The translations under genes and the position numbers were made by a program. A stretch of DNA of 64,000 bases from Myxococcota bacterium (GTDB lineage: Bacteria; Myxococcota_A; UBA9160; JAFDDA01), in NCBI GenBank assembly GCA_965228475.1, contig OZ245817.1, positions 4,942,158 to 5,006,157 on the forward strand, read 5' to 3'. Under the pieces are notes generated by a model. The model saw nothing but the letters and a program-made list of their open reading frames with translations, had not been told where the DNA came from and did not search any database. Positions 2,141 to 36,204 of this stretch are shown here, piece after piece (position 1 is the stretch's first letter; each line of letters begins with the position of its first letter).

Positions 2141-3099
2141 GTGACGGGCTCCGAGTAGAACTGCTTCGTCCACTGACGGAAGTGGGCGAGGTAGGTGTCG
2201 GCTTCGCAAAGCACCGGCCGGGCCCGGTGCACCTTGTTCTTCCAGATGCGCAGGTCTTCGAGGACGCCCTTCGTGAGCCCCGTCATCCACTCCTCGCCCG
2301 CGACGTCGGCCATGTTGTTCGTGACCGTGAGCGCCCAGCGCGAGATGCAGTTCTCGGCGTCGATCGGCGTGGTCGAGGTGAACATCAGGAGGCCCGCGCC
2401 GGGGATGCCCTTCGTGCGCACGCTCGAGATTCCGATCTGCCAGGTGTCGCGTTCGAGCACCGTGTGGAACGTTCCGAAGGGCGTCTTCCGCTCGCCCTCG
2501 TCGGTGATGCGGAAGAAGCGGCTGTCCTCGCCGAACTCGATCTTCGACTGCTCGGGCAGGTCCTGCATGCTGTGGACGTAGTGGAAGTGGACCGGATCGC
2601 AGTTGTTCTCGCTCATCTCCTGGAGATGGGCGGGGACCTCCATCTCGTGGAGCCGCGGCTCCGTCCACTCGGCGTCCGAGAACTCGGGCATGATCGGGAC
2701 GTCCCACTCGGGCGCCTTCCCCTCGGCGTGGTACCAGACGAAGATCATCCGGTTCGCCTCGAGCACCGGCCAGGCGCGCACGCGCGCGCGCGGCGGGATC
2801 TTCTCGCAGTAGGGGATCTCGACGCACTCGCCCGTGTCGCCATCGAAGCGCCAGGCGTGGAACGGACAGCGCAGCGTGTTGCCGTGCACTCGCCCGCCTT
2901 CGCCGAGGTGGGCGCCGAGGTGCGGGCAGTAGGCGTCGAGCACCTTCGCTTCGCCTTCGCGCGAGCGGAAGAGCACCAGGTCTTCACCGAAGACGCGCGT
3001 CGGCTTCACGTCGCCCGGCAGGAGATCCCGGCTCCACCCGACGGCGAACCAGCCGTTGGGCAGGGGCAACGCGGTGTGGTGTCGGCTCTCGGTGTTCAT
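2137..3099 (-). CDS. Rieske non-heme iron oxygenase, KshA/Neverland(DAF-36)-like
   Basis: CPHLGAHL...CPFHAW Rieske motif; ENNCDPVHFHYVH iron motif; EDLRIWKNK C-terminal Asp. Confidence 0.88.
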   Translation of the reverse strand: MNTESRHHTALPLPNGWFAVGWSRDLLPGDVKPTRVFGEDLVLFRSREGEAKVLDAYCPHLGAHLGEGGRVHGNTLRCPFHAWRFDGDTGECVEIPYCEKIPPRARVRAWPVLEANRMIFVWYHAEGKAPEWDVPIMPEFSDAEWTEPRLHEMEVPAHLQEMSENNCDPVHFHYVHSMQDLPEQSKIEFGEDSRFFRITDEGERKTPFGTFHTVLERDTWQIGISSVRTKGIPGAGLLMFTSTTPIDAENCISRWALTVTNNMADVAGEEWMTGLTKGVLEDLRIWKNKVHRARPVLCEADTYLAHFRQWTKQFYSEPVT

Positions 3100-3725
3100 G
3101 CCTGTTCTCCGTCGAGGGCGATGGCGCTGGCGAGAAAGCGGCCCGCTGCGGTGGCGCGCTCGCGCAGCGGATAGCCTTCGAAGTTCGTCCAGGAGAGCAT
3201 CAGCGCGTAGTACGCGCCGAGGAGCATCTCGACGAGGGTCTCCTCGTCGTGTTCACGGGTCACGTCGCCGGCCTCGAGTCCGTCGCGGACGATGCCGGCC
3301 AGGGAGTCGTGGAGCTTCTGCGCGACGCCCTCGGGGTGGTTCGCGTGGGTGAAGCGGATGATCTCGTGGACGAGCTCCGGGCGCAGGGCGCCGGCGTCCT
3401 CGCAGCGATCGGCGAGCCACTCGAAGAAGCAGCGGATGCGCTCGCGCGAGGTCATCGGCTGCTTGCGCAGCTCCTCGACCCCGGCGAGGTGCTCGTCCAT
3501 GGCGAAGCGCGCGATCGCTTCGAGCAGGTGCTGCTTCGAGGGGAAGTGGTTGAAGAAGGTCTTGTGGGCGACGTCCGCGCGTTCGCTGATCTCGCTGACC
3601 TTGGTGGCTTCGAAGCCCTGCTCGTCGAACAGGGCGATGGCGGCGGCGACGATGCGCCCGCGCACCTCGAGCTTGCGTCGTTCGCGGCGCGAGAGGGTCG
3701 GGTCCAGGGCGTCGAGGTCCGTCAT
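3096..3725 (-). CDS. TetR/AcrR family transcriptional regulator
   Basis: RRERRKLEVRGRIVAAAIALFDEQGFEATKVSEISERADVAHKTFFNHFPSK helix-turn-helix. Confidence 0.92.
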   Translation of the reverse strand: MTDLDALDPTLSRRERRKLEVRGRIVAAAIALFDEQGFEATKVSEISERADVAHKTFFNHFPSKQHLLEAIARFAMDEHLAGVEELRKQPMTSRERIRCFFEWLADRCEDAGALRPELVHEIIRFTHANHPEGVAQKLHDSLAGIVRDGLEAGDVTREHDEETLVEMLLGAYYALMLSWTNFEGYPLRERATAAGRFLASAIALDGEQA

Positions 3726-3746
3726 CGCCGGGATCCTGACACTGCC

Positions 3747-3778
3747 TGCACTCGATTGCAAGAGTATATTCGAGTGTA
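3747..3778. promoter_or_regulatory. Two tandem imperfect 14-bp palindromes, putative TetR operators
   Basis: TGCACTCGATTGCA (3747-3760) and TATATTCGAGTGTA (3765-3778) both resemble TRCACTCGAGTGYA; AT-rich patch just upstream of tetR. Confidence 0.55.
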
Positions 3779-3832
3779 ACTATGTCCCCGGCAGGGAAAT
3801 TTCCGCTGCAAAAACGGAACCTTGGACGATGG

Positions 3833-4909
3833 CTAGGGCGCCGTGCCGGAGGGGCCGGGGAGGCCCGAGGTGAAGCCCGGCAGGAATTTGATGAAGTCGT
3901 CGACGTTCACGAAGCCGTCGCTCGTCATGTCCGTGCCGGATCCGGAGTCGAAGCCGCTCTGGAAGTCCGGGAGGAAGACGAGGAAGTCGTCGACGTTGCA
4001 GAACCCGTCGCCGGTGAAGTCGCAGTCGCAGCAGTCGCCGTACTGGTCGCCGTCCGCGTCGTCCTGGTTCGGGTTGAACTCGTTGATGCAGTTGTCGTCG
4101 GCGTCGCTGACGCCGTCGCCGTCGGAGTCCGAGAAGGGCATCACCGAGATGGCGTCGAGGTTGGCCCCCGCCCAGGCGCCGTGCTCGGCGTCGCCGTCGT
4201 AGCTGAGCTCCCAGGTTCCGCCGACCGGGTCGTACTCGAGCACGTCCTCGTCGGCAAAGGTCACGCCGCCGACGGTCCCGCCCGTGTCGAAGGAGAGCAG
4301 CAGGTTGCCGTTGATCGAAAGGCGATCCGCTCCGTCGAGGTCGAGGGCCGTGCCGACGCCCGCCGCCGAGCCGTCGAAGAACAGGCTGAAGGCGCCGGTT
4401 CCCGCGTCGAAGCGCACGAGATCCTCGTCGTGGGCCACGACGCCGCCCGCGAGGGCGACGGTGATGTCGAAGGAGAGGAGCAGGTCGCCGTCCTCGGCGC
4501 GAGCCACGGCGTCGACGCGCGCGCCGGCGGGCACGCCGTTGGCAGCTGCGTCGAACTCGAGGGAATAGGTGGCGCCGTCCCAGCGCGCGACGTCCGCTCG
4601 CGTGGTGACGCCGGCGCCCGGCAGGTTCGTCGTGATGTCGAGGGAGAGCAGCCGGTCGGTGCCGCCGCCGTCGTGGGTGGCATCGAGATCCGCGGCGCCG
4701 GGCACGGGGCCGACGTCGAGCAGGTTCACCGTGCCGGCGAGGTCATCCTCGGCGACGTCTTCGTGCATGACGGTCTGGCCGCCGAGGTTCACCGTGATGT
4801 CCGGCGAAACGTCGAGGGCGGGAAGCGATGTGGCCGCGGTCGCCGGGGATGCCACGGAAAGCGCGAGCGCGGCGAGAGCGGAGAGGGACCAACCTTGGAG
4901 CTTCGACAT
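3833..4909 (-). CDS. Secreted repeat protein with thrombospondin type-3 Ca-binding repeat and dockerin/EF-hand-like C-terminus
   Basis: Signal peptide MSKLQGWSLSALAALALSVASPATA; repeated (D/N)LDA...LLLSFD..DEDL units; DSDGDGVSDADDNC..NPNQDDADGD..GD; paired DFTGDGFCNVDDF / DMTSDGFVNVDDF. Confidence 0.8.
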   Translation of the reverse strand: MSKLQGWSLSALAALALSVASPATAATSLPALDVSPDITVNLGGQTVMHEDVAEDDLAGTVNLLDVGPVPGAADLDATHDGGGTDRLLSLDITTNLPGAGVTTRADVARWDGATYSLEFDAAANGVPAGARVDAVARAEDGDLLLSFDITVALAGGVVAHDEDLVRFDAGTGAFSLFFDGSAAGVGTALDLDGADRLSINGNLLLSFDTGGTVGGVTFADEDVLEYDPVGGTWELSYDGDAEHGAWAGANLDAISVMPFSDSDGDGVSDADDNCINEFNPNQDDADGDQYGDCCDCDFTGDGFCNVDDFLVFLPDFQSGFDSGSGTDMTSDGFVNVDDFIKFLPGFTSGLPGPSGTAP

Positions 4910-31646: not shown

Positions 31647-32129
31647 CTACTTCCGGAGCCCGCGCTTCGCTTCGGGCCGGAGGTCGTGCTCCGCTGCGGG
31701 TACCGCAGACCGGGTCGCCGCCGGCTTCCGGACGGCTGCAGGGGCAGCGGCCGCGGGTTCGCCGCCGCCGCCCGTCCGGTACTGCCCGGCCACCGGGTTC
31801 TTGCCCGCGGGAGGCCTGCGGCCCGTCGTGCCGTCGCCGAAGCGGACCGGACCGGTGGCCGGGTCGAGTGCGGAGGCGCCGGGGTCGCTAGCCGCGGGGT
31901 TCGTCCACTCCGGGGTGTGGACGGGGATCCGGCCGGCGCCTTCCTCGACGAGTTCACCCCGGAGCGAGCCGTAGCTCCGGTCGTCGAGCACCGGCCGGTG
32001 GATGGCCCGGTTCTCGCCCTCGGTCCGGGTCCCGAGCTTCGATCCCGCAGTAGACTCCGCGGTCGAGGCCGGGGCATTTACGAGCAAGGCCACCCCGAGC
32101 AGGGCGGGCCAGGAGCGATGGGGTCGCAA
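31647..32129 (-). CDS. Small secreted protein carrying contractile-tail baseplate motifs
   Basis: TTG start with GGGGAG RBS; signal peptide; PVLDDRSY...RIPVHTPEWTN...SDPG and LDPATGPVRFGDG..GRRPPAG...YRTGGG. Confidence 0.65.
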   Translation of the reverse strand: MRPHRSWPALLGVALLVNAPASTAESTAGSKLGTRTEGENRAIHRPVLDDRSYGSLRGELVEEGAGRIPVHTPEWTNPAASDPGASALDPATGPVRFGDGTTGRRPPAGKNPVAGQYRTGGGGEPAAAAPAAVRKPAATRSAVPAAEHDLRPEAKRGLRK

Positions 32130-32137
32130 CGCTCCCC

Positions 32138-32641
32138 CTAGAGGCGCCGGGCGGCGCCGACGTCCTCGGCCGGGGCCCGCGGGTAGTCCGGGTAGACGTG
32201 GGTGCGGCTCCGGCGGACGCCGAGCTGCTCCATGGCCCCGAGGACGTCCCGGCGGCTCACCTGGCCGATCAGTGTGCCGTTTTCGACCACCGGCAGGCGG
32301 CGGACGGCGTGGGTCTGGAAGGTCTGGGCCAGGGCGTAGAGGTCGACGCCCGGCTCGATCGTCAGGCAGTCGCGGGACATGTAGTCGCCCACGTGGCCCT
32401 CTTCGCGGTGGTCGTCCGAGTAGAACTCGCCGGCGGAGAGGATCCGCAGGCAGTCGAGCTCCGAGAGCATCCCGGCCAGGCGGCCCTGGGCGTCCACCAC
32501 CGGGGCCCCGGAGATCTTGTTCTTCAGCAGCGTGCGGATCGCCGCGGAGATCTCCATCTCCTGGGTGAAGGTCACGAGCTTCCGGGACATGATGTCGCGG
32601 GCGGTGGGGACCTGATGGGCGATGCGGCTGACGTCTCGCAT
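32138..32641 (-). CDS. CBS domain pair protein
   Basis: ARDIMS, ISGAPVVD..GMLSELD, RRLPVV..GQVSRRD. Confidence 0.9.
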   Translation of the reverse strand: MRDVSRIAHQVPTARDIMSRKLVTFTQEMEISAAIRTLLKNKISGAPVVDAQGRLAGMLSELDCLRILSAGEFYSDDHREEGHVGDYMSRDCLTIEPGVDLYALAQTFQTHAVRRLPVVENGTLIGQVSRRDVLGAMEQLGVRRSRTHVYPDYPRAPAEDVGAARRL

Positions 32642-32835: not shown

Positions 32836-34215
32836 GTGACGGTTCACGAGATCTCCAAGGGCCTCGACCTCCCGATTCAGACCGAGCTGAAGCAGATCGT
32901 GCGATCGACGGTGTGGCCCAACCGGGTCGCCGTCATCGCCGACGACTTCCCCGGCATGAAGCCCGCGATGAAGGTCGAAGAGGGCCAGACCGTGAAGCGC
33001 GGTCAGGTGCTCTTCGAAGACCGGAAGTGTCCGGGCGTTCTGCACACCGCGCCGGGCGCCGGCCGCGTGATCGGCGTGCACCGCGGCGCGAAGCGCGTGC
33101 TCCAATCCGTGGCGATCGATCTGACGGACCGCGAGCGCGCCGGCGAGTTCGACGAAGAAGAAGCCGTCGCCTTCGGCACCTACACGGGCAAGTCTCCGGG
33201 CGAGCTCACGCGCGAGCAGATCGTGGCGCTGCTCGTCGAGTCCGGGCAGTGGACGGCGCTTCGCACGCGGCCCTTCAGCAAGACGCCGAGCCCTTCTTCG
33301 ACGCCCCACTCCATCTTCATCAACGCGATGGACACGAACCCGATGGCACCCGTGCCGGACGTGGTCATCGAGAAGCGCCGCGAGGACTTCGCCCGGGGCG
33401 TCGCGATCCTGACGCGCCTCACCGAAGGCAAGACCTACCTCTGCCTGGCGGCGGATTCCGAGGCCGACGCGGGCATCGACGCCCCGGTCACGGTCGAGCG
33501 CTTCCGGGGACCGCACCCGGCGGGCAACACCGGCCTCCACATCCATCTCGTCGACCCGGTCCACCGCGAAAAGACGGTCTGGACGATCGGTTACCCGGAC
33601 GTGATCGCGATCGGCCGGCTGTTCGCGACCGGCCAGCTCGACGTCGAGCGCATCGTCTCGATCGCGGGGCCGCCGGTTCCCGAGGAGCGCCTGGTCCGCA
33701 CGCGGCTCGGCGCCTCCACCGACGACCTCGCCGGCGGCGTCGACTACGGCGGCGAGGTCCGGCTGATCGCGGGTTCCGTGATCTCCGGGAAGAAGGCCAT
33801 GGGCGACGCCTTCGGCTACCTCGGCCGCCACGACCGCCAGGTCAGCGTGCTGCGGGAAGGCCGCGAGCGCGTCTTCATGGGCTGGCTCACGCCGGGCTGG
33901 GACGCCTTCTCGACCCTGCCGATCTACCTCTCGCGCCTCTTCCCGAGCCGCCGCTTCGACTTCACGACCAGCACGAACGGTTCCCGGCGCGTCATCATCG
34001 CCATCGGCGCCTTCGAGCGCGTCATGCCCTTCGACATCGAGCCCTCCTATCTGATTCGCGCCCTCGCCGTCGGCGACGTGGAAGAGGCGGAGAAGCTCGG
34101 CGCGCTCGAGCTCGACGAAGAAGACCTCGCCCTCTGCTCGTTCGTCTGCTCGAGCAAGAACGACTACGGCCCGATGCTGCGTCGCAACCTCGAGATCATC
34201 GAGAAGGAAGGCTGA
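32836..34215 (+). CDS. nqrA: Na+-translocating NADH:quinone reductase subunit A
   Basis: ISKGLDLPI, RTRPFS, GPHPAG, LELDEEDLALCSFVC. Confidence 0.95.
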   Translation: MTVHEISKGLDLPIQTELKQIVRSTVWPNRVAVIADDFPGMKPAMKVEEGQTVKRGQVLFEDRKCPGVLHTAPGAGRVIGVHRGAKRVLQSVAIDLTDRERAGEFDEEEAVAFGTYTGKSPGELTREQIVALLVESGQWTALRTRPFSKTPSPSSTPHSIFINAMDTNPMAPVPDVVIEKRREDFARGVAILTRLTEGKTYLCLAADSEADAGIDAPVTVERFRGPHPAGNTGLHIHLVDPVHREKTVWTIGYPDVIAIGRLFATGQLDVERIVSIAGPPVPEERLVRTRLGASTDDLAGGVDYGGEVRLIAGSVISGKKAMGDAFGYLGRHDRQVSVLREGRERVFMGWLTPGWDAFSTLPIYLSRLFPSRRFDFTTSTNGSRRVIIAIGAFERVMPFDIEPSYLIRALAVGDVEEAEKLGALELDEEDLALCSFVCSSKNDYGPMLRRNLEIIEKEG

Positions 34216-35435
34216 TGAAGTGGCTGCGTGACATTCACGACCAGGTCGACCCGCTCTTCGCCAAGGGCGGCAAGTTCGAGAAGGTCCACGCGCTCTGGGA
34301 AGCGCACGATACGGCCATGTTCACGCCGGGCGAGGTCACCCGGACCGCGCCCCACGTGCGTGACGGCCTCGACATGAAGCGGCTGATGATCACCGTCGTG
34401 GTCGCCCTTCAGCCGTGCCTGCTCTGGGCGCTCTACAACACGGGCTACCAGTCGCTGCTCGCCATCGAGAACGGTGCGCTCCCGCGCGACGACTGGCAGA
34501 TGGCGCTCTACCAGTTCCTCGGCCTGGCCTTCGACTCGGGCAACGTCGGGCTGTGCGCGATCTTCGGCGCCCTCTACTTCCTCCCCATCTACATCACCGG
34601 CATGCTGGTCGGGGCGGTGATCGAGTTCGGCAACGCGATCCTCCGCCACGAGGAGGTGAACGAAGGTTTCCTCGTCACCGGGATGCTGCTGCCCCTGACG
34701 CTTCCCCCGACGATTCCGCTCTGGATGGTCGGCCTCGGCATGGCCTTCGGTCTGATCTTCGGCAAGGAGGTCTTCGGCGGTACGGGCATGAACTTCCTGA
34801 ACCCGGCGCTCACCGCGCGGGTCTTCCTGTTCTTCGCCTACCCCGCCTACATGAGCGGCGACGCGCCCTGGATCGCCGCAGACCTGACCACCACGGTCGA
34901 CTCCTACACCGGCGCCACCTGGCTCGCCCAGGCCGCCGTGGTGCCCAACGTCCTCCAGGACGCGAGCTGGAGCGACGCCTTCTTCGGCTTCGTCCCGGGC
35001 TCGATGGGGGAGACGTCGGCCTTCGCCTGCCTATTAGGGTTGGTGATCCTACTCGTCATGCGGATCGCGGCCTGGCAGACCGTCGCAGGCGTGACGCTCG
35101 GGACGATCGTGCTCGCGGCCTTCTTGAACACCGTGGGCTCGAGCACGAACCCGCTGTTCGAGGTGCCGTTCTGGTGGCACATGGTGCTCGGGGGCTGGGC
35201 CTTCGGGATGGTCTTCATGGCGACCGACCCGGTTTCCTCGGCCTACACCAACGTCGGGAAGTTCTGGTACGGAGTCGGGATCGGCGTGCTCGCCATCTTG
35301 GTGCGCGTGGTGAACCCCGCGTACCCGGAGGGCATGATGCTCGCCATCCTCTTCATGAACATGTTCGCGCCGCTGATCGACCACTTCGTGCTGCGCGGCA
35401 ACATCGAGCGGAGGCTCGCGCGGAATGCAGCATAG
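34215..35435 (+). CDS. nqrB: Na+-NQR subunit B
   Basis: HVRDGLDMKR, KEVFGGTG.NFLNPAL, TGAT FMN site, MATDPVS, YPEGMMLAIL. Confidence 0.95.
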   Translation: MKWLRDIHDQVDPLFAKGGKFEKVHALWEAHDTAMFTPGEVTRTAPHVRDGLDMKRLMITVVVALQPCLLWALYNTGYQSLLAIENGALPRDDWQMALYQFLGLAFDSGNVGLCAIFGALYFLPIYITGMLVGAVIEFGNAILRHEEVNEGFLVTGMLLPLTLPPTIPLWMVGLGMAFGLIFGKEVFGGTGMNFLNPALTARVFLFFAYPAYMSGDAPWIAADLTTTVDSYTGATWLAQAAVVPNVLQDASWSDAFFGFVPGSMGETSAFACLLGLVILLVMRIAAWQTVAGVTLGTIVLAAFLNTVGSSTNPLFEVPFWWHMVLGGWAFGMVFMATDPVSSAYTNVGKFWYGVGIGVLAILVRVVNPAYPEGMMLAILFMNMFAPLIDHFVLRGNIERRLARNAA

Positions 35436-36204
35436 TAGTCGCTACATCGTGCTCTTCGCCCTCGCCGTCTGCGGCGTGTGCTCGGTCTTCGTGGCGAGCG
35501 CCGCGGTCTCCCTGAAGGACCGCCAGATCGAGAACCAGCGCCTCGACGTCCAGAAGAAGGTGCTGGGCGTGGCCGGGCTCATGAAGCCCGGCGAGAGCCT
35601 CGAGCGCGAAGAGATCACCCGGCTCTTCTCGGAGCGCGTCGAAGCCCGCGTCGTGGATCTCGAGAGCGGCTCCTATGCGGAATCCATCGCGGCGGACGAT
35701 TTCGACCAGCGCGTCGCGAGCAAGGACCCGGAGCGCAGCCGCCCGGCGCCCCCGAACGGCGCGAAGGTCCTGCGCGTCCCGCATCACGGGAAGGTCTTCG
35801 AGGTCAAGGAAGGCGGGGACGTCGTCTCCCTGATCCTGCCCATCGAAGGCAAGGGCCTCTGGTCCACGCTCTACGGCTTCATCGCGCTCTCGGCGGACAC
35901 GCGCACCATCCTGGGGATCACCTTCTACGAGCACGGCGAGACGCCGGGGCTCGGCGGCGAGGTCGACAACCCGCGCTGGAAGGCGCTCTGGGAGGGCCGG
36001 AAGGCCTTCGACGCCCAGTGGGAGCCGAAGATCGCCGTCAAGAAGGGCGCGGCCGGGCCGGTCGAGAGCGACCCGTATCAGGTCGACGGCCTCTCCGGCG
36101 CCACGGTCACCAGCCGCGGCGTGACGTATCTCGTGCGCTTCTGGCTCGGCGAGGACGGGTTCGGCCCGTTCCTGGCACAGCACCGCTCCTCGAGGGGAAT
36201 CTGA
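35425..36204 (+). CDS. nqrC: Na+-NQR subunit C
   Basis: [31 protein letters not shown] site. Confidence 0.95.

Follow-up and report, generated by a model that had tools for sequence, protein, structure and literature searches.

A short protein with a signal-like N-terminus and condensed motifs of Cis11-type baseplate wedges in a Myxococcota bacterium

A protein of 160 amino acids from a Myxococcota bacterium, here called the mini-protein, descends from baseplate wedge proteins of the Cis11/TIGR02243 type (T4 gp6-like), of which it keeps the N-terminal motif and the mid-protein motif LD..G.VRFGDG..G..PP.G...YR.GGG. Its gene lies in a stretch of DNA of 64,000 nucleotides, all of which was analysed and is referred to as the window, and the protein belongs to a rare and patchily distributed family whose members carry wedge motifs 1, 2 and 3 in differing number and order, joined by low-complexity linkers that also vary. 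It is very likely that the gene and its family are real and Cis11-derived, each protein being a signal-bearing string of wedge motifs. Judging from sequence, the mini-protein could be an exported, flexible and multivalent mimic of conserved CIS contact peptides that acts on foreign contractile tails, a role that is put forward tentatively and may well prove wrong.

The NCBIfam model TIGR02243 ('putative baseplate assembly protein') matches the mini-protein in two stretches with an E value of 7.4e-10, beyond chance, and with a score of 38 bits that does not reach the curated cut-off of 155.8 bits. The best stretch aligns residues 87-123 with positions 411-452 of the 659 in the profile. Both the N-terminal motif of this model, LDDR...PEWT...DPG (motif 1), and its mid-protein motif, LD..G.VRFGDG...YR.GGG (motif 2), are present in the mini-protein, and the domains between and after them (~600 further residues, including the RAVT..DY region) are absent. 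Wedges of the Cis11, Afp11 and Alg11 type are ~650-1000 aa long and carry motif 1 in their first ~45 residues and motif 2 at profile positions 411-452, whereas the mini-protein lacks the ~390 residues between the motifs and everything after ~470. Unlike Cis11-type proteins, it has a signal-like N-terminus and no predicted fold, and it is encoded outside a CIS cluster in a genome without a CIS; genes of the TIGR02243 type lie between gp25-like (Cis9) and Cis12 genes, which is not the position of the mini gene. The wedge proteins T4 gp6, P2 gpJ and T6SS TssF have the same structural role, in the wedge and its core bundle, as the Cis11-type parent family; the mini-protein differs from these in that Pfam Baseplate_J (PF04865) does not match it even at E values up to 10, and no other Pfam family matches it either. 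A first reading of the window, made from its letters alone (the sequence-only reading), had assigned both motifs to baseplate wedge proteins and named TIGR02243 and Baseplate_J as families to compare them with; the assignment agrees with TIGR02243, albeit below its cut-off, but not with Baseplate_J.

The same reading had placed the two motifs hundreds of residues apart in the parent proteins, and the full-length relatives bear this out. A profile built from the mini-protein and its four closest relatives retrieved 3085 of 1.84 billion representative proteins at E <= 0.001, and the best 150 of these are mostly 630-1030 aa long and are matched at residues 3-45 and ~360-500. Among full-length proteins, the nearest relatives have PEWT at residue 29, FGDG at 423-488 and RAVT at 503-573, and ~400 residues separate motif 1 from motif 2. 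The only solved relative retrieved by sequence search, Streptomyces coelicolor Cis11 (PDB 9GTP chain 1K), carries motif 1 at residues 3-45 and motif 2 at 353-406. The 9GTP structure is the S. coelicolor CIS baseplate, whose wedges, according to passages of its description (PMC12237407), are built of Cis11 and Cis12. Passages on AlgoCIS (PMC8894135) assign Alg11 domain I and Alg12 domains I and IV to the core bundle, and describe how the N-terminal strand of Alg11 joins domain V in a beta-sheet and passes across the cleft that separates domains I and VI. In full-length Cis11-type proteins, motif 2 is preceded by a stretch of the form W(T).V.D....GP.D.V(Y/F).LD that resembles the end of motif 1 (PEWT....DPG); a deletion between the two could have yielded the mini-protein junction 'PEWTN....DPG...LD'.

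Table 1. Features of the mini-protein locus, with positions counted from the first letter of the window.
Feature	Position	Strand	Remarks
CBS-pair gene, 167 aa	32138..32641	minus	First in apparent operon; Pfam CBS E 2.9e-28; divergent from nqrA
Shine-Dalgarno region (AGGGGGAG)	32130..32140	minus	Overlaps CBS stop codon; 8-nt intergenic gap
Mini-protein gene, 160 aa + stop	31647..32129	minus	TTG start; stop (TAG...) at 31647-31649; TIGR02243 E 7.4e-10
Signal-peptide-like N-terminus, ~residues 1-24	32058..32129	minus	Called by heuristic; seen in 12/13 family members
Motif 1, residues 46-84, PVLDDRSY...RIPVHTPEWTNPAASDPG	31878..31994	minus	Corresponds to N-terminus (residues ~3-45) of full-length Cis11-type proteins
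Motif 2, residues 88-123, LDPATGPVRFGDGTTGRRPPAGKNPVAGQYRTGGGG	31761..31868	minus	Corresponds to TIGR02243 profile positions 411-452
Ala/Pro/Arg-rich C-terminal tail, residues 124-160	31650..31760	minus	Varies across strains and relatives
Polytopic membrane-protein gene, 347 aa	30588..31631	minus	No Pfam/NCBIfam model; unnamed multi-copy family

The mini gene is preceded by TAGGGGGAGCG-TTG, in which the Shine-Dalgarno sequence AGGGGG/GGGGAG lies 3-5 nt from the TTG start. Its GC content by codon position is 0.75/0.65/0.86, in agreement with the annotated frame, and its GC3 of 0.86 compares with 0.91-0.96 in the neighbour genes. The possibility of a wrong-strand or chance ORF was dropped, given that a family exists at the protein level. 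A scan of the locus for promoters and terminators gave nothing above shuffled sequences. The description in the sequence-only reading, a 160-aa ORF with a good ribosome-binding site and a signal peptide, separated by 8 nt from the CBS gene and by 15 nt from the membrane-protein gene, matches the minus strand in each of these points, the signal peptide as called by heuristic.

To date, 13 short proteins of this kind have been collected, the window's own (P0004) included, with lengths of 137-284 aa. The 12 others all come from metagenome assemblies, and one of them is recorded as a hypothetical protein from a Gammaproteobacteria MAG. Ten of the 13 have a complete motif 1 and 11 have motif 2; a third wedge motif, (R/H)R.RAVT..D(Y/F)...PG, occurs in seven members but is absent from the window's protein. 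This motif corresponds to the RAVT..DY motif of Cis11-type proteins (~498-525), where it follows motif 2, whereas it stands ahead of motif 1 in all seven short proteins (order 3-1-2). Ten other members were scanned with TIGR02243 and gave E values from 1.7e-5 to 6.7e-17, all under the cut-off, the best stretch of P0037 falling on profile positions 498-525. In P0084 and P0138, only LDDR.Y is left of motif 1 and is joined to the 'VYQLD' context of motif 2, which indicates that the junctions differ among family members. The linker between motifs 1 and 2 likewise ranges from 3 to ~50 residues, the longest being the Pro/Ala-rich linker of P0155 (~50).

Residues 30-58 of P0055, ahead of its wedge motifs, match Pfam CIS_tube with an E value of 3.9e-6 and a score of 27.1 bits, just over the cut-off of 27, and the F(F/S)PDG.PLRA strand found there recurs in the CIS_tube proteins that real clusters encode ~5 kb upstream of cis11. 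P.P.PYPN-like peptides form the C-terminal end of three members and give weak matches to the start of a Tox-PAAR-like domain (E 0.02 and 0.13), which may hint at a PAAR-like peptide in the family. When the non-Cis11 parts of members were compared with ORFs of CIS loci by blastp-short, the PAAR-like region yielded nothing but Pro-rich noise, and regular expressions found no P.P.PYPN or LQKAND motif in those ORFs. A four-cysteine segment (C-x2-C-x-RG-x-C ... QG-x-C) is common to P0055 (residues ~59-78) and P0075 (~52-70), where it separates the tube-like segment from the wedge motifs; it has no family match, and a regular-expression search of the sampled CIS loci returned no in-frame counterpart. 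The third wedge motif and the tube motif in relatives, the shuffled motif order and the lack of a predicted fold go beyond what the sequence-only reading had described. PHROGs gave no matches, and the ESM Atlas gave no usable lead for the mini-protein or for the neighbouring membrane protein.

The mini-protein begins MRPHR-SWPALLGVALLV-NAPASTAES, with an n-region of +2 and an h-region whose 12-residue hydrophobic core has a mean Kyte-Doolittle value of 1.96. Putative signal peptides were called with our own heuristic rather than SignalP, and the features it takes into account, a positive n-region, a hydrophobic h-region and small residues at -3/-1 of a cleavage site, are found in the mini-protein and in 12 of the 13 family members overall. 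Divergent homologues share a signal-like N-terminus, motif 1 and motif 2, in line with the condensed baseplate derivative proposed in the sequence-only reading, with export as the apparent fate. A different use of the hydrophobic N-terminus is conceivable, in which it would serve as an uncleaved anchor and the protein would act in the cytoplasm, or tethered to the membrane, as a poison subunit that blocks the assembly of contractile-phage tails. In favour of this, the retained peptides are those of wedge assembly, and motif 1 may lie in the parts of Alg11 that form the core bundle and cross the cleft between domains; against this, a hydrophobic core that follows a positive n-region is predicted to leave the remainder of the chain outside, and PADLOC-DB 2.0, run on P0001, P0002, P0003, P0007 and P0055, gave 0 families at E values up to 1. 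A poison subunit is considered very improbable.

AlphaFold2 predicted the mini-protein from a 111-row alignment that included full-length proteins, with a mean pLDDT of 62.8 and a pTM of 0.27; only residues 41-60 are confident (pLDDT 88-89), with a helix at 53-62, and motif 1 does not pack on motif 2. The three-motif member P0007 gave a mean pLDDT of 58.2 and a pTM of 0.17; shallow family alignments such as these can hide real folds. Pro, Ala and Gly make up 40% of the residues of the mini-protein, which has five aromatic residues. Taken with the variable linkers and the shuffled motif order, the AlphaFold2 result suggests that the mini-protein is a flexible, disordered chain bearing peptide motifs and has no compact fold. 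It may instead be a small autonomous folded domain, equivalent to a contiguous piece of Cis11 minus inserted domains and working as an ordinary exported binding module. Since the N-terminal strand of Alg11 pairs with domain V and runs across the I/VI cleft (PMC8894135), N-terminal and later segments are in contact in the full-length protein, and a small folded piece of the parent is a rival to be weighed; however, the models of P0004 and P0007 contain one confident helix and no packing, the motif 1-motif 2 linker varies from a few residues to the length seen in P0155, and motif order and content differ among members. A folded domain of this sort is unlikely.

The pattern of conservation shows signs of selection. 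An alignment of five members that are 34-45% identical has 36 invariant columns, nearly all of which lie within the motifs. On a tree of 76 motif columns, built without P0055 and P0075 because of their many gaps, 11 mini-proteins fall on one side of a branch with modest support (SH-aLRT 82), and the full-length proteins closest to them are those of the P0013/P0022 group. The mini gene is intact in two strain variants, P0164 and P0165, with 10 variable sites distributed over the signal peptide, N-linker, position 54, Gly run and tail; a single one of them falls within residues 41-119 (binomial p ~0.012, with boundaries set after seeing the data). A marine-metagenome contig of 4037 letters covers all three genes in collinear order and differs by 37 substitutions; its sole length change is a 3-nt in-frame deletion at the Gly run, on the border of the C-terminal tail. 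Of the substitutions listed, 17 of 20 are at third codon positions, all 20 being in the membrane-protein gene. Across strains, the mini-protein is 97% identical, compared with 98-99% for its neighbour.

These data bear on whether the gene is a relic without function, left by a CIS gene that was lost or transferred, and still open by chance. Such a relic would be compatible with a genome without a CIS, a TIGR02243 score far under the cut-off, a somewhat low GC3, the failure to find the gene in 40 relatives and the faster change of the mini-protein than of its neighbour across strains. Against it stand the recurrence of the build in 13 divergent proteins that share invariant motif residues and signal-like N-termini, strain variation that avoids the motifs, a sole indel that is in frame, and the grouping of the mini-proteins on the motif tree. 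A relic is regarded as improbable, and the view of the sequence-only reading that a decayed remnant is unlikely gains from the existence of divergent homologues with the signal-like N-terminus, motif 1 and motif 2.

The genome consists of one contig of 5,006,157 bp and is 96% complete by marker genes. The mini-protein ORF is the sole match to TIGR02243 across the whole genome, in which Phage_sheath_1, Baseplate_J, the T6SS sheath VipB and the Cis12-type model TIGR02242 have no match. The sequence-only reading had noted no tail or CIS genes nearby, and the whole-genome search extends this to the sheath, Baseplate_J, VipB and TIGR02242 models. A search of the genome for CIS_tube gave no match, but its controls also gave none, and it is uninformative. 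The sole other contractile-tail-like signal in the genome is a sub-threshold match to GPW_gp25 (18.7 bits, E 0.0054) in a 118-aa frame outside the window, at 347778-347942 on the minus strand of the contig (G000:C1).

Cis11-type matches occur in 165 of 400 other sampled genomes of the phylum, whereas the 63 genomes listed for nine families of the order to which the window belongs have none. Among the matches listed for the 400 genomes, none besides that of the present genome covers both motifs side by side. A protein query for the mini gene in 40 relatives did not find it, giving one weak match (E 0.007) in a 425-aa frame. The gene is thus unseen in 40 relatives and in the matches listed for 400 genomes of the phylum, which argues that it is dispensable. 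Mini forms were also sought more widely. In a profile scan of genome contigs, the 80 best loci correspond to full-length genes and are matched in motif 1 only, and the matches listed from a metagenome profile scan are likewise to motif 1 of full-length genes; one candidate from the latter that resembled a mini form (L102) was rejected as the first part of a full-length gene located at the end of a contig. A DNA pattern search for PEWT-(15-25 aa)-FGDG returned, among the matches listed, only full-length proteins, with W before motif 2, and a scan of viral contigs gave eight loci, every one of which matches only part of the query.

The mini gene sits in an apparent operon between the CBS-pair gene and the polytopic membrane-protein gene, and this three-gene set is divergent from nqrA, which begins at 32836. 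ORFs at 32836-36204 on the plus strand of the window resemble, from reading their translations, the start of an nqr operon (Na+-translocating NADH:quinone reductase). Of 41 related genomes, 24 contain the membrane-protein family, one of them with as many as 10 matches (G012; the loci include L086-L096), and the Atlas neighbours of the membrane protein are unnamed clusters that are commonest in Chloroflexota. An orthologue with 61% identity, from a Myxococcota MAG, has a glycosyltransferase upstream, and one with 48% identity (G027) has different neighbours; neither has a mini gene or a CBS gene beside it. At eight further loci of membrane-protein paralogues, the neighbouring ORFs that pass the GC3 filter vary from locus to locus. 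In G001, a genome of the same genus, nqrA and the CBS gene are kept; the next gene is Usp-like, and both the mini gene and the membrane gene are missing there.

Given that orthologues of both neighbour genes occur without the mini gene, the operon link is not conserved. The suggestion in the sequence-only reading that the mini-protein is a receptor partner of the membrane protein is not upheld by the 61% and 48% orthologues, which adjoin neither a mini gene nor a CBS gene, or by G001, where the CBS gene occurs without a mini gene. A broader alternative is that the mini-protein is exported to serve another envelope ligand or partner, possibly with the membrane and CBS proteins, and has nothing to do with foreign tails. 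The tight, operon-like gaps of 8 and 15 nt and the collinearity of the three genes in a second strain (the 4037-letter metagenome contig) speak for it, whereas the glycosyltransferase and other neighbours of the two orthologues, the differing neighbours at the eight further paralogue loci among ORFs that pass the GC3 filter, the Usp-like gene that follows the CBS gene in G001 and the multi-copy nature of the membrane family (up to 10 matches in one genome) speak against it. Such a role elsewhere in the envelope is rather unlikely.

A decoy role predicts that only universally conserved peptides are kept, that their order and linkers are free and that peptides of more than one CIS protein are used, as is seen across the family; the export signal and a carrier without a CIS also fit the pattern of a multivalent mimic. 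As a decoy, the exported mini-protein would be a flexible chain that attaches to components of foreign eCIS, tailocin, T6SS or myophage particles arriving at the envelope. This binding could block or mis-trigger the particles, giving a broad-spectrum decoy in a host without a machine of its own. The main difficulty is that the wedge assembles in the cytoplasm of the producer and stays outside the target cell, and it is hard to see where an exported mimic would meet the buried contact peptides of the wedge; in addition, a Sec signal in a diderm leads to the periplasm and not to the medium. Other points that weigh against the decoy reading are that export is called from a sequence heuristic, that GC3 in the mini gene is under that of its neighbours, that the gene was not found in 40 relatives or as a mini form in the matches listed for 400 phylum genomes, that the PAAR-like match is weak, that the tube motif belongs to a relative (P0055) and not to the mini-protein, that PADLOC gave no match and that AlphaFold2 may overlook a real fold on shallow alignments.

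Periplasmic immunity proteins against T6SS effectors are small and exported and protect against a contractile weapon, and the mini-protein would be like them in having an exported, small and protective role if the decoy reading is right. T6SS immunity proteins neutralise toxins, however, and do not resemble structural subunits of the machine. Resistance to contractile weapons and phages is usually attributed to receptor change or to effector immunity. In titles and the opening parts of abstracts, the literature on TIGR02243 and on CIS baseplate decoys or immunity describes no proteins of this kind, nor any general protein-based protection against CIS, tailocins and contractile-tailed phages. 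Extended to the whole family, exported 'beads-on-a-string' decoys might form a new class of envelope defence, carrying contact peptides of the wedge protein Cis11, of a tube-domain protein and perhaps of a PAAR-like tip, and jamming or prematurely firing eCIS, tailocin, T6SS or myophage particles in bacteria without such a machine; this generalization is speculative and rather doubtful.

Were the decoy reading true, it would amount to a simple and broad counter-measure built of the machine's own conserved contact peptides, and it would help to identify the wedge and tube peptides that can be reached, and that matter critically, in the assembled particle. Should it be wrong, a large structural protein still appears to have been cut down to its conserved peptides and to have gained an apparent export signal, and the reduced protein has then been retained under selection without the parent machine.

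Several further proteins were seen alongside the family. P0139 (334 aa), from a metagenome and without a signal peptide, combines motif 1 and motif 2 with a fibre N-terminus of the CIS13 family (E 1.6e-19), and P0028 (255 aa), also from a metagenome and without a signal peptide, combines a fragment of an AAA ATPase with the same two motifs; these two may represent decaying CIS loci, assembly chimeras or another condensed form. P0009 (4625 aa) gave 33 matches, all by profile positions 97-146, which are the Pro/Ala-rich tail, and these are probably low-complexity repeats and not homology. In a Nitrospira CIS cluster used for comparison (L082), a VgrG-related protein at 2317-4097 is split over two overlapping ORFs, the halves of which correspond to profile positions 54-347 and 368-546.
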